Shown in pieces: positions 1 through 4,799 of a DNA stretch of 4,799 nucleotides (position 1 is its first letter; the number at the start of each line of letters is the position of its first letter). The notes below the pieces were generated by a model. The model was given only the letters and a program-made list of their open reading frames with translations. It had not been told where the DNA came from and ran no database searches. The position numbers were made by a program, and so were the translations under genes. The DNA comes from a virus (lineage: Duplodnaviria > Heunggongvirae > Uroviricota > Caudoviricetes): the IMG/VR virus record IMGVR_UViG_2657244940_000018, one strand, 5' to 3'.

Positions 1-166
1 ATATTTCGAAGTTATCAGGTGGACAGTTAATCCATTTGTTAGAGCCTGCTATGATTTCCCTGTCCCAACGTTTTATTCTTTCGCCATTTCTTTCTATGCA
101 TATCATGTAATTTGATGGGGTCATTAATTCTTTGGATGCCGAAAGACATTCCTTAAATGATGACAT
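1..166 (-). CDS. Hypothetical protein, N-terminal fragment of an AT-rich ORF that runs off the left window edge
   Basis: The reverse complement of 1..172 reads in one frame with no stop: (LE)MSSFKECLSASKELMTPSNYMICIERNGERIKRWDREIIAGSNKWINCPPDNFEI. The first ATG is at 166..164 and the frame is open from 184, inside the IS end. The other two minus frames contain stops. GC content is far lower than the rest of the window. No obvious Shine-Dalgarno sequence precedes the ATG and I do not recognise the protein. The six-frame track omits it, probably as too short or partial. Confidence 0.3.
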   Translation of the reverse strand, partial: MSSFKECLSASKELMTPSNYMICIERNGERIKRWDREIIAGSNKWINCPPDNFEI

Positions 167-172
167 TTCAAG

Positions 173-194
173 GTAAGCGACTCGTCAGAACCGT
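173..194. repeat. Terminal inverted repeat of the IS66-family element (tnpC-proximal end)
   Basis: GTAAGCGACTCGTCAGAACCGT matches the reverse complement of 2850..2871 at 16 of 22 positions. A GTAA terminus and imperfect inverted repeats are characteristic of the IS66 family. Confidence 0.55.
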
Positions 195-202
195 ATTGAT
201 AT

Positions 203-1774
203 TTACTGAGAGCTCAGATCAACTTTCCAGGGCAACAGATCGCGTACCCGGTTTGCCGGCCAGTCCTGGATATGTTCAATGACGTAACGCAGCCACTTTT
301 CTGGCTCCACATTGTTCAGACGGCATGTGCCGATCAGCGAGTACAACACCGCCGCATGTTCACCACCGCTGTCGGAACCCGCGAACATCCAGTTTTTCCG
401 GCCTACGGCCACTCCCCGTAAGGCGTTCTCTGCGATGTTGTTGTCGATTTCCACCCAGCCATTACTGCAGTACACGTTCAGTGCATCCCACTGTTTCAGC
501 AGGTATGCGAACGCTTTTGCCGTATCTGACTGACGCGACAGTGTTTTCATCTGTTGCTGTATCCAGTCATACAGTGACTGCATCAGTGGCGCGGCTCTGG
601 CTTTTCTTGCCGCCAGACGCTGTTCTGCTGAACAGCCCCGGACCTCTGCCTCGATGGCATACAGTTCACCGATACGCTGCAGGGCTTCCGTGGTGATGTA
701 GGTGGGCGCTCTTGCATGCACATCGTGGATTTTTCTCCGGGCATGAGCCATACACGCGGCTTCCGTTATTCTGCCGGATTCGTATAACGCCCGGTAACCA
801 CCGTAAGCATCGGCCTGAAGCACACCGCTGTAACCGGCCAGGTGATTTTGTGGATGGATACCTTTCCGGTCCGGACTGTACGCGAACCAGACCGCCGGGG
901 GCATCTGTGAACCGGCGTTACGGTCATCACGGACGTAGACCCACAGCCGGGCTGTCCGGGTTTTACCGCTGCCCGGCTCCTGGACCGGGACGGGGATATC
1001 ATCAGCATGGACTTTACCGGGCATCAGCACATACTGGCGCAGGACGTCATACAGCGGCTCCAGCAGTTCAGCAACAGCACCTGTCCAGCGCCCCAGTGTG
1101 GCACGGCTCAGCTCCACTCCCTGACGACGGTATATTTCTGACTGGCGGTATAACGGCAGATGGTCTGCATATTTCCCGGTGACAACATGGGCCAGAAGCC
1201 CCGCTCCGGTATAACTGCGTGCAATGGGTTTTGAAGGTACTGGTGCCTGCACGATATGGTCGCACCGGCAACAGGCCTGTTTCGGACGTTGTGTTTCGAT
1301 AACCTTAAAGGCGCTGCTGATAAGCTCCAGTTGCTCTGACACATCACATCCCAGAGAACTGAGTTCACCACCACAGGCAGGACAGCATTCCTCTTCCGGC
1401 CGGATAACCCGGGTTTCACGGGGAAGTGAGGCCGGTAACGGTTTACGGGCTGAAGACTGGCGCAGGGCGGATGGCAGTACCGGGTCATATTGCTCACCCA
1501 GCGTTTCCGCCATTTCTTCCTGAAGTGCGCTGATTCGCTCCTGTGCTTCCTGTATCTGCCGTTCGGTTTTTGCACGAAGTTTTTCTGAGCTTTTACCGAA
1601 CTGCATACGTTGCAGTTTCGCAACCAGCGCCTTCAGCCGGTTGATTTCGGAAGCATAAGCCGCCACCCGCTGTGAGAGCAGGCGGTTGTATTCAGCCATC
1701 TGGCGGATGGTGTCCTGTTGCGTCTGCAACAGTGCCCGCAGGCGGGCGTTCTCATGAGCAAGTGAGGTGTCCAT
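203..1774 (-). CDS. tnpC: IS66-family transposase TnpC
   Basis: 523-aa ORF. The N-terminus is leucine-rich and coiled-coil-like ([26 protein letters not shown]). Paired CxxC motifs (CCPACGGEL ... CCRCDH) fit the IS66 transposase zinc-finger region, followed by a large catalytic domain. It lies immediately downstream of tnpB, as in IS66 elements. Confidence 0.93.
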
Positions 1775-1778
1775 ATCC

Positions 1779-2141
1779 TCACTTTACAACGGGATATATG
1801 CGGATTCCAGCGCGTTCCGTTCGTTTCGGGTGCTTCCAGTTGATACCTTCAAGAAGCATGGATAACTGAGCCGGAGTAAGGTGCACCTTGCCGTCACGGG
1901 TGACTGGCCAGACGAAGCGGCCCCGCTCCAGGCGTTTGGTGAAGAGGCACAGTCCGTCACTGTCAGCCCACAACACTTTTATCTGGTCACCCCGGCGTCC
2001 GCGGAAGATGAACAGGTGTCCGGAGAACGGGTCATCCTTCAGGACGTTCTGAACTTTTGATGCCAGGCCGTTAAAGCCATTTCGCATATCGGTGATACCT
2101 GCAACCAGCCAGATACGCGAACCTGCAGGGAGAGATATCAT
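1779..2141 (-). CDS. tnpB: IS66-family accessory protein TnpB (IS66 Orf2)
   Basis: 120-aa [37 protein letters not shown]...[22 protein letters not shown], which I recognise as the conserved IS66 Orf2/TnpB protein. Its ATG overlaps the tnpA stop (TGATG), suggesting translational coupling. Confidence 0.93.
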
Positions 2142-2818
2142 CAGTGGTTGCTCCCTTTTATTTCGCGGATAAGTGTCTGTAATAACGCCGGCGTCAGTTT
2201 ACCTTTAAGCCTGAGAGTTCCGGCCGGCAGAACCAGCTCACAACACAGACTGTCGGACGGTGTATTTATCTGCTCTGGTTCCTGTGCGGGGGCCGGGATT
2301 TTATTATCCGGCTCCGGCGTTAACGTCACGGGAAGCAGTGCCGGCATATTTTTTCCGGAAGGCAGCAGGCCACCTTTCCGGTATTGATGGCGCCAGTTGA
2401 AGAGCAGGTTATCGTTGATTCCGTTTTCCCGGGCGATCTGCGCCACACAGGCTCCGGGCTGCAGTGACTGCTCCACTAAGGCGATTTTAAACTCATAAGG
2501 GAAGTTGGGCCGCCGGGGACGTTTTTTTACCACGGGGGCTTCGGATATAACGGTGCTTTCAGGACGTACGACTGGTACCGTGGAAAATTGTCCGTAAAGG
2601 CAGGCATCAAGTTCCTGCTCCGACATGCCTGCGGGCAAAGGCCACGAAAGACCAGCTCTCCGAAAGCGCACGAACATACTACAAACTGTTGATTTTGGTA
2701 CACCCAGGCGACGCCCGGCCACAACCCGGGGTAAATGTTCTTCAAAGTGAAGACGTAAAGCTTCAGTGATCCAGGTCCGGTGTTTCATACGATAGTGTCC
2801 ATTAAAAATGATGGACAT
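2141..2818 (-). CDS. tnpA: IS66-family accessory protein TnpA (helix-turn-helix DNA-binding protein)
   Basis: 225-aa ORF with two helix-turn-helix-like segments (RRLGVPKSTVCSMFVRF and GACVAQIARENGINDNLLFNWRHQYRKG), then a proline-rich tail. It is the first gene of the tnpA-tnpB-tnpC set. The start is ambiguous: alternative Met codons lie at 2788 (MKHRTW...) and further inside (MSEQELD...). Confidence 0.8.
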   Translation of the reverse strand: MSIIFNGHYRMKHRTWITEALRLHFEEHLPRVVAGRRLGVPKSTVCSMFVRFRRAGLSWPLPAGMSEQELDACLYGQFSTVPVVRPESTVISEAPVVKKRPRRPNFPYEFKIALVEQSLQPGACVAQIARENGINDNLLFNWRHQYRKGGLLPSGKNMPALLPVTLTPEPDNKIPAPAQEPEQINTPSDSLCCELVLPAGTLRLKGKLTPALLQTLIREIKGSNH

Positions 2819-2849
2819 TATTTTTGTAGAGCCGGAGGAAACAGACCAG

Positions 2850-2871
2850 ACGGTTTAAATGAGCCGGTTAC
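2850..2871. repeat. Terminal inverted repeat of the IS66-family element (tnpA-proximal end)
   Basis: The reverse complement of 2850..2871 is GTAACCGGCTCATTTAAACCGT, matching 173..194 at 16 of 22 positions. Homology to phage gene I stops exactly at this point. Confidence 0.55.
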
Positions 2872-3415
2872 TATCCAGCGAGGAAAAGTACGTGTTCTGT
2901 CTGCCGTTATCCGTTACGCGGTAATCCGGTGTTTTTGCCTTCGGGGCCAGCATCTGTGCCACACCGCCCAGTATCATGCTGGCCCCCAGTGAAAACAGCA
3001 TCGTGGTGGCAGAAAAACCACCGGCACTCAGGGCTGAACCCCATAACGCCATCGAGGCACCGGCCGTGAAGAAAGAGCCCACGATGGCTGCCGCCCCCAG
3101 CACAATCTGCAGTCCGCCCTTTCCGGCTCCGGCCAGTCGCGGCACAATGTGGATGACCGTTCCCTCACCCAGCTGTTCGTGAAGACGGGCGTACACCGCC
3201 TCCGGTGCCGTGTCATCACCGGCAATACGTATCTGGTACCAGCCTTCGTTCATCTGACGGCGGAATCCGGGCACCTGTAACGACAGGGCGCGAATGGCTT
3301 CCGCTGCCGTGTTCACATACAGGCTGAGGCGGCGGCCAAATCGTTGTAAATCCCCGTGAAGGCAGATGCGTGCCAGTGGCGGTGACGCCAGACAGAATGC
3401 GTTCGTCGTTGCCAT
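2855..3415 (-). pseudogene. I: Lambda-like tail assembly protein I (gpI homolog), 3'-truncated by the IS66-family element
   Basis: The N-terminus MATTNAFCLASPPLARICLHGDLQRFGRR and the rest through ...KTPDYRVTDNGRQNTYFSSLD closely resemble lambda gpI as I recall it (223 aa). Similarity ends at about 2872, and the last codons (S-N-R-L-I-stop, 2855..2872) are read from the IS terminus. About 40 C-terminal residues are missing. Confidence 0.85.
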
Positions 3416-4056
3416 TTTTCGGAATACCTCTCCCGTTTACTCAGTTGTTCAGGCAGATGGTGAAGCAGCTCACCGTTGCCGCAGTAAATGGCGGCATGAT
3501 TAGCCACCGATGCGCCGAAGCAGCACAGCAGGATATCGCCCGGCAGTGCAGAGGACAGGGGCACCCGGTAAAAGCCCGTTGCCTCCATATTGTCCAGGTA
3601 AAGGTTCTGACCGTTGCACCACCAGTCATCCCCGCGATGAAAATCCGGCATATCAATGCCTGCCAGATGGTATGCATCCCGGAACAGCGTGTAACAGTCC
3701 GTCACCCCGTGCGCAAAGCGCCGTCCCGTCAGGTGCGGAACGCAGCGGAATTTGTGAATGTCACCCCGGCTGACCAGCCACCAGGGCAGTGCGCTTTTTA
3801 TCTGCAGCCGCCGGTCGGCCTCGCTCAGCCAGGGCAGTCCACCGGGATGACTGTGGACCAGTGCCACAATCTCCCCCTGCATCTCTGCCCGCAGCCAGTC
3901 TTCCGGTGCGATACGAAAATACGCCTCAGGCTCTGCAGAGATATTCACGCACGGCTGGTACTGGTTGCCCTCCGGCGTGCTTATCACGAAGCCGCACGAC
4001 TCCGCAGGCGCACACCGCCGGGCATGCGCCAGAATCGCTGATTCAGTCTGTGTCAT
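3313..4056 (-). CDS. K: Lambda-like tail assembly protein K (gpK homolog; JAB/MPN plus NlpC/P60 domains)
   Basis: 247-aa ORF with a JAMM-type motif HSHPGGLPWLSEAD (HxH-x7-S-xx-D) in the N-terminal half and NlpC/P60-like Cys and His contexts (GVTDCYTLFRDAYH, NHAAIYCG) in the C-terminal half. It sits between L and I, as in lambda. Its 3' end overlaps the start of I by about 100 nt in another frame. Confidence 0.9.
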   Translation of the reverse strand: MTQTESAILAHARRCAPAESCGFVISTPEGNQYQPCVNISAEPEAYFRIAPEDWLRAEMQGEIVALVHSHPGGLPWLSEADRRLQIKSALPWWLVSRGDIHKFRCVPHLTGRRFAHGVTDCYTLFRDAYHLAGIDMPDFHRGDDWWCNGQNLYLDNMEATGFYRVPLSSALPGDILLCCFGASVANHAAIYCGNGELLHHLPEQLSKRERYSEKWQRRTHSVWRHRHWHASAFTGIYNDLAAASACM

Positions 4057-4061
4057 GGGAT

Positions 4062-4761
4062 TTACTGCGAAAGTTTATTAATGGAAAGGAAACCGCCAAA
4101 ATTGCCGACATTCCTGCGCAGTTCACACCCGCGCATGCACTTGCTGCATCTGTCCTTACGGATATCCGTGGTGGGTTTATCGAACTCATCCGCCACAGCC
4201 CCGCCCGTGTAACCACACTCATCAGAGCGGTAGGTCCACATACAGGTGTTCGCCAGCATGATACGACCGGGAAACAGCGCCCCGTCCGTCTCGGTCGGTG
4301 TGGCCAGCACAAACGAGGCCGTCATGGCTGTCAGCTGCGACATCTGCTCCACCACCCAGCGGTCACTCAGCTCCTGCTCCGGGTCCGCCTCCGGATTGCC
4401 CGCAACGAAATTCACCGCATCCAGAAAACGGGCATACACCCGGCGGCGGACCACCGTGGCCCCCACCAGGCTCTGCAAATCCTCCGCCATTCCGGTGACA
4501 AGACCAAACAGATTGGACACCGTCAGCGACGGGCGGGCACTGCTGCCCTTTCCGTTCATCTCAAAGCCACTCCCCTCAATCGGGTACGCCTGATATTGCC
4601 GCCCCTGCCAGGTCACCGGCTCCCCCTTTTTCATTCAGCTCATTACAGAAAAAATACCGCTCACCGCCCTGTACCGTCAGGTCGATTTCCCAGAGCAACA
4701 CCCGCGGTGACTGCTCTGACTTAACCGACTCGTTCAGACTTTCTTCGTGAATATCCTGCAT
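4062..4761 (-). pseudogene. L: Lambda-like minor tail protein L (gpL homolog), disrupted by a +1 frameshift in an A5G5 run
   Basis: The N-terminus MQDIHEESLNESVKSEQSPRVLLWEIDLTVQGGERYFFCNELNEKG (ORF 4576..4761) matches the lambda gpL start. The continuation EPVTWQGRQYQAYPIEGSGFEMNGKG...NVGNFGGFLSINKLSQ is in a different frame (ORF 4062..4634). The frames switch at the coding-strand run AAAAAGGGGG (plus strand CCCCCTTTTT, 4622..4631); one fewer G would restore NEKGEPVTW. Confidence 0.88.
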
Positions 4762-4799
4762 CAGTTCACCACCTGCTCAATCGTACAACTGAAATCACT
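4761..4799 (-). CDS. M: Lambda-like minor tail protein M (gpM homolog), 3' end only (partial, runs off the right edge)
   Basis: The minus-strand frame reads ...SDFSCTIEQVVN-stop, and the TGA overlaps the L start codon (TGATG at 4759..4763). The ...EQVVN ending resembles the lambda gpM C-terminus as I recall it. Only 12 codons are visible, so this is tentative. Confidence 0.4.
   Translation of the reverse strand, partial: SDFSCTIEQVVN

Follow-up and report, generated by a model that had tools for sequence, protein, structure and literature searches.

An AT-rich reading frame beside an ISCro1-type element is very probably a 5'-truncated PilI-family gene remnant

Introduction

The Pfam family PF10623, 'Plasmid conjugative transfer protein PilI', has as its founding member PilI, which is encoded in the pil region of the IncI1 plasmid R64. 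The family consists of soluble accessory proteins of about 90 aa, which are found on conjugative plasmids and in integrative conjugative elements (ICEs). Yoshida et al. reportedly found in 1999 that only twelve genes, pilK-pilV, are required in R64. The IncI2 plasmid TP114 is described as lacking pilI, pilJ and pilK, and its type IV pilus as still supporting conjugative transfer (PMC9045228). Another paper reports that 48% of the surveyed IncI1 plasmids lack traD, pilI and pilJ (PMC10682676). This literature is indirect, and suggests that the essential pilus role implied by the name PilI is not supported.

The second system of relevance is ISCro1 of the IS66 family, which carries three genes: tnpA, tnpB and a tnpC with the DDE_Tnp_IS66 domain. 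A simple insertion of ISCro1 leaves an 8-bp target-site duplication; for example, the copy in the O26:H11 strain 11368 has tattcgcg duplicated on both sides.

The stretch of DNA analysed here (the window, 4,799 nt) is the entire draft contig CDRA01000968.1 (assembly GCA_000947375.1), and the two are identical save at position 1794, near the tnpB/tnpC boundary, where the deposited contig has an N and the window shows an A. A first-pass annotation had described an AT-rich open reading frame of unrecognised identity at the left edge of the window, abutting the end of an insertion sequence (IS), and had considered it as possible horizontally acquired cargo beside a prophage tail module. The features are collected in Table 1.

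Table 1. Features located in the window, with the basis of each assignment
Feature	Position	Strand	Basis or remark
PilI-family (PF10623) gene remnant	1..172	minus	100% nucleotide identity to an annotated 282-nt CDS, and Pfam match
Codons 24-80 of the 93-aa gene (the first base of codon 81 is position 1)	172..2	minus	
First ATG of the frame; internal Met26, not the native start	164..166	minus	Intact translation and family alignment
ISCro1-type IS66-family IS, 2699 bp	173..2871	minus	99.5-99.8% identity to annotated ISCro1 copies
Terminal inverted repeat (GTAAGCGACTCGTCAGAACCGT)	173..194		Repeat search, partner 2850..2871
Other terminal inverted repeat (…ACGGTTTAAATGAGCCGGTTAC)	2850..2871		Repeat search; boundary backed by the O26:H11 copy
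tnpC, 523-aa IS66 DDE transposase	203..1774	minus	ORF and Pfam DDE_Tnp_IS66
tnpB, IS66 accessory protein	1779..2141	minus	120 aa here vs the usual 115
tnpA, 225-aa IS66 accessory protein	2141..2818	minus	ORF and RefSeq annotation of 99.8%-identical copies
Lambda gpI-like tail assembly gene, cut at its 3' end by the IS	2872..3415	minus	Pfam Lambda_tail_I

Identity of the reading frame

The minus-strand frame from position 184 to 2 is free of stops over 61 codons, and stops are present in the other two minus frames and in all three plus frames of the left flank. Re-translation of this frame gave the peptide quoted in the first-pass annotation, with the same first ATG (166..164); 6 nt separate this ATG from the IS terminus at 173. 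The GC content is 36.0% in 1..172, 55.1% in the IS (173..2871) and 58.8% in 2872..4799. The step in composition falls exactly at 172/173, which is the IS end, as the earlier description had also held.

A megablast search with positions 1..200 was run against 5,426 complete E. coli genomes. Positions 1..172 were matched in 89 genomes (12 of these at 100% identity), and all the matches ended at position 172. The matched DNA lies within a minus-strand CDS of 282 nt, in the same frame as the ORF described earlier, and this CDS extends beyond the portion in the window by 69 nt on its 5' side and by 42 nt on its 3' side. The encoded protein of 93 aa, WP_000856156.1 (for example JFY28_RS17830 in strain S19-651), has an uninterrupted gene in 12 or more complete E. 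coli genomes; RefSeq calls it 'type IV pilus biogenesis protein PilI' in some entries and 'hypothetical protein' in others. Its gene is identical in sequence to all 172 bases of the window, on the same strand. The intact translation reads MKTNKKDTKWYIFYRENSGEDIL-LEMSSFKE…DNFEI-LGELITINRIIKK, of which residues 24-80 are held by the window. Judging from the intact alleles of the other genomes, the native stop lies 42 nt past window position 1 and the last 13 codons fall outside the contig. Compared with WP_000856156.1, codons 1-23 and all sequence before them are missing from the window copy, and the ISCro1 end stands in their place.

The ORF is an already catalogued PilI-family gene of a conjugative element in truncated form. 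The earlier report of an open frame at this place therefore stands, and its 'unrecognised identity' does not. It had also been proposed that a stop shortly beyond the window edge, combined with a lack of homologues, would speak against a gene; the stop is indeed near, but the homologues are plentiful.

Membership and conservation of the PilI family

The curated gathering threshold of PF10623 is 25 bits. The HMM search that had been proposed for this ORF matched PF10623 to the 57-aa window fragment at 33.6 bits (E 2.9e-8), and to the identical full-length protein at 40 bits (E 3.1e-10). The fragment spans profile positions 25-72 of 77, so that the domain in the window is incomplete. Database searches revealed 21 close homologues, and 122 were found with a profile search; a precomputed PF10623 match was present in 93 of the 120 homologues listed. 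These homologues come from Escherichia, Salmonella, Shigella, Enterobacter, Cedecea and Serratia.

The family alignment showed that residues N17 and G19 are invariant, and that conservation reaches at least 90% at W10, Y14 and R15. The most conserved motifs are RWDR (58-61) and PD.FEILG (75-82), which are shared with the PF10623 family, as is the size of about 85-100 aa. An AlphaFold2 prediction (mean pLDDT 79.8) for a homologue with 86% identity has a beta-beta-alpha-beta-beta-beta arrangement, with the first two strands predicted at residues 10-16 and 21-26. The intact protein had no match in NCBIfam, PHROG or PADLOC, and no sequence match to any PDB chain. A SAND domain (PF01342) was also considered for this protein, and was rejected because of its sub-threshold score.

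The identity between WP_000856156.1 and the plasmid proteins that are named PilI by their sources is only 34-38%. No function has been demonstrated for the family, and the label 'type IV pilus biogenesis protein PilI' is given to genes that lie outside any pilus setting. PF10623 may even be misnamed, its members being not pilus-biogenesis factors but small cytoplasmic accessory proteins of conjugative elements, such as inhibitors of host defence or of a toxin, but this is an improbable alternative; the window copy would still be a dead fragment if it were true.

Genes of the PilI family are often broken, and several members are frameshifted or truncated. Such frequent breakage could mean that the IS prefers AT-rich targets, or that the family is weakly selected.

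Truncation by the ISCro1-type element

The IS of the window shares with ISCro1 its length of 2699 bp, the genes tnpA-tnpB-tnpC including the DDE_Tnp_IS66 domain in tnpC, and the terminal repeats with the start GTAAGCG…. The terminal repeats (22 nt) are imperfect and 73% complementary, and have the GTAA start. The matching copies in many E. coli genomes are annotated as 'IS66-like element ISCro1 family transposase', tnpB and tnpA. Because of the target duplications at other copies, the ends of the IS can be placed at GTAAGCG… and …CCGGTTAC. The end at position 173, which adjoins the remnant and is the one downstream of tnpC, is set independently by the terminal repeats, by the limit of the matches at 172, and by the duplications at the other copies. 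A 20-nt flank that seemed to be shared with the O26:H11 copies (query 153..2883) proved to be an artefact of BLAST extension, since the flanks differ. In strain GPEC673, ISCro1 has inserted independently into the same PilI-family gene at another site, which follows window position 115 and has positions 108..115 (8 bp) duplicated. The ambiguous base at 1794 lies inside a multicopy IS, which suggests a consensus of several copies.

The truncation removes 69 nt, namely codons 1-23 with the start codon, as well as the ribosome-binding site and the promoter. The removed codons encode the conserved W10, Y14, R15, N17 and G19, and comprise the predicted beta-strand 1 and part of the predicted strand 2 of a small single domain. 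A 5'-truncation by the IS had been suggested in the first-pass annotation, and it agrees with the end of the identity to the intact gene at 172 and with the missing codons. The ATG at 166 had been taken as a possible gene start; instead, it corresponds to an internal methionine of the intact protein. The 15 nt before this ATG (GTCGCTTACCTTGAA) contain no purine-rich Shine-Dalgarno-like sequence, just as no clear ribosome-binding site had been seen before. An outward-reading IS promoter had also been put forward; however, a scan of 1..500 gave no sigma-70-like promoter site, nor any terminator-like site. The tnpC stop (203..205) lies 37 nt upstream of the remnant ATG, in the same strand and frame, and two stop codons stand between them. 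A fusion protein of tnpC and the remnant is therefore not conceivable. Read-through transcription from tnpC into the remnant is possible, given this arrangement.

Taken as a whole, positions 1..172 are best explained as the remnant of a PilI-family gene of a conjugative element, which was very probably 5'-truncated by ISCro1 and is now a dead fragment. According to this explanation, ISCro1 would have inserted between codons 23 and 24 of an intact PilI-family gene. The insertion would have parted the promoter, the ribosome-binding site, the start codon and the first 23 codons from the downstream fragment. The remnant, which is 100% identical to the intact copies, is still open only through the recency of this event, and its frame would run on for 42 nt beyond the end of the contig to the native stop. 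A transcript of the remnant would arise at most via read-through from tnpC, perhaps with weak initiation at Met26, and any product would lack part of the fold. Since such a product would be incomplete and Met26 lacks a ribosome-binding site, the remnant should be regarded as a pseudogene; it is presumably a recent pseudogene fragment, and almost certainly non-functional.

Two other readings of this stretch have to be compared with the truncated gene. One is that 1..172 is non-coding, or that the true gene is on the plus strand. A frame on the plus strand is open from the edge; the longest ends at a TGA at 113..115, and not at about 122..124 as had been reported. In mononucleotide shuffles of 1..172, 11% had at least one of the six frames fully open, and the chance of one named frame being fully open was P ~0.011. 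As a chance event the open frame would be weak evidence, and the status as a gene rests on homology, not on length. The homology results refute both the non-coding and the plus-strand reading, to which hardly any probability can be given. The minus frame exceeds the Pfam family threshold, and is kept among homologues down to about 30% identity. The differences from a plasmid copy are spread 5/2/11 over codon positions 1/2/3. In the intact loci the plus-strand neighbour stops 31 nt before window position 1, which argues against a gene on this strand, and an Rfam scan of the whole window gave no matches.

The other reading is that the remnant still works, as an N-terminally shortened PilI-family protein of 68 aa made from Met26, on a transcript that enters from tnpC or starts at an outward promoter. 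In its favour, the uninterrupted frame matches functional-looking copies at 100% identity, tnpC runs nearby on the same strand and nothing resembling a terminator separates the two, and both of the most conserved motifs are in the retained part. However, the ATG is not preceded by a Shine-Dalgarno-like sequence and no promoter-like site was detected, while the lost 23-25 residues are conserved in the family and are predicted to make strand 1 and part of strand 2. The perfect identity is also what a recent insertion would be expected to leave, with no sign of selection on the short form, and decay by frameshift or truncation is common in the family. A working remnant is therefore very unlikely, and the correct label would be that of a PilI-family pseudogene which ISCro1 has disrupted and 5'-truncated, rather than that of a novel prophage cargo gene. 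The finding matters little beyond this correct annotation. More generally, the simplest reading of an AT-rich open frame that ends at an IS terminus is a gene remnant, and the uninterrupted alleles identify it immediately.

Genomic context of the intact gene

The context of the intact gene was viewed in one complete genome, that of strain S19-651, where it is located in the distal accessory region of an ICE of the MPF-G type. This element carries replication proteins of the STY4528/STY4534 families, TIGR037xx ICE proteins, TraD and TraG. The intact gene is downstream of the genes for ArdC, LPD29 and DUF1281 proteins and adjoins sigA; hypothetical proteins are also among its neighbours. The 50-kb view of this locus took in 45 kb upstream of the gene, with 44 CDS, and 5 kb downstream, and showed neither a pil operon nor any pilM-V gene. 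The sole pilus-related name is a 'PilL N-terminal domain' protein, which belongs to the MPF-G conjugation module and is 35 kb away. In the R64-type thin-pilus (type IVB) cluster, the gene stands at the head of the pilI-pilV operon, beside pilJ, pilK and pilL; in contrast, the intact gene of S19-651 does not hold such a position.

The paralogues are located on different kinds of plasmids. Those with 57-61% identity are found on MPF-I plasmids; one of these plasmids was viewed in context, and there the PilI-family paralogue is between trbC and the relaxase gene. A 91%-identical paralogue is carried by a mobilisable plasmid, beside a type IA topoisomerase and an LPD7 protein. A small MOBC/MPF-T plasmid carries a 34%-identical paralogue under the name PilI, with ParA and a RelE/ParE pair next to it. 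In the examined genomes, the intact gene thus lies on an ICE or on conjugative or mobilisable plasmids and never in a prophage, which contradicts the proposal of prophage cargo. The broader suggestion of horizontal acquisition of this low-GC DNA is supported; the link to a prophage tail module is not.

Two neighbours of the intact gene were also observed. A co-oriented gene of 130 aa (locus coordinates 6301..6693, minus) is 60 nt upstream, and might form a two-gene operon with it; this neighbour had no match in Pfam, NCBIfam, PADLOC or PHROGs. A convergent gene of 597 aa (locus coordinates 4177..5970, plus) overlaps the intact PilI-family gene by 11 nt at its 3' end, and had no match in Pfam, NCBIfam or PADLOC.

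Flanks of the element and the prophage adjacency

The 8 nt on the two sides of the IS differ (ATTTCAAG vs TATCCAGC), and the window IS does not show a simple insertion of ISCro1 with its 8-bp target-site duplication. Because this duplication is absent, the two flanks are assigned to different insertion events. The flank from 2872 onward is unrelated to the flank at 1..172. Its gpI-like gene is cut 137 nt before the natural end, which intact relatives reach. The resulting ORF (2855..3415, with the junction at 2871/2872) continues for 17 nt inside the IS, which encodes its final '…SNRLI*'. An identical chimeric protein was called in at least five other draft assemblies, and the same junction is present in three further sibling contigs. 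The same 'SNRLI' tail, likewise derived from the IS, closes one plasmid paralogue of the PilI family.

The junction at 172/173 was absent elsewhere in the complete E. coli genomes, the PLSDB plasmids, the GTDB representative genomes, IMG/VR and the JGI metagenomes, so that the truncation is documented by a single draft contig. The predicted partner junction, 5'-…CCGGTTAC-ATTTCAAG-CAAAATATCCTCGCC…-3', which would join the other IS end to the upstream part of the gene, was absent from the complete E. coli genomes. The only full-length match to this query was in GPEC673, whose insertion site differs.

The flanks of the IS derive from an ICE-type island and a lambdoid prophage, respectively, which were joined either by recombination between IS copies or by an assembler walking through the multicopy repeat. 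The first of these takes the contig as faithful, with the ICE-derived fragment truly beside the lambdoid tail genes after an inversion, deletion or translocation between ISCro1 copies. The missing target-site duplication is the signature expected of such homologous recombination between IS copies, and related complete genomes hold up to 27 matching places each, which are mostly IS copies. On the other hand, the window makes up one complete 4.8-kb contig in a draft assembly that is highly fragmented, the deposited contig has an ambiguous base inside the IS, and the pass of an assembler or gap-filler through a collapsed repeat would fit equally well. Moreover, in sibling drafts the identical gpI::IS junction is joined through the IS to two other, unrelated left flanks, and these contigs end only 87-172 nt past the IS. 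A faithful contig is a real possibility, then, but falls somewhat short of an even chance. The identity of the ORF is affected by neither reading of the adjacency. Since the flanks come from different elements, the place of the remnant beside phage tail genes says nothing on its function and is either incidental or artefactual; in fragmented drafts, genes that are neighbours across a multicopy IS should not be taken as functionally linked.

The flanks beyond the IS in the sibling assemblies read 'tctttttttacagaataaatcacaattt…' (4350..4455 of one contig) and 'gatccggtcattacccatgcagttc…' (the last 87 nt of two contigs). In the prophage-derived part of the window, gene L for a minor tail protein (4062..4761, minus) is split into ORFs of 61 aa and 190 aa by one extra G in a G-run at about 4618..4622 (GGGGG vs GGGG in a compared sequence), which might be a real frameshift or a homopolymer sequencing error.
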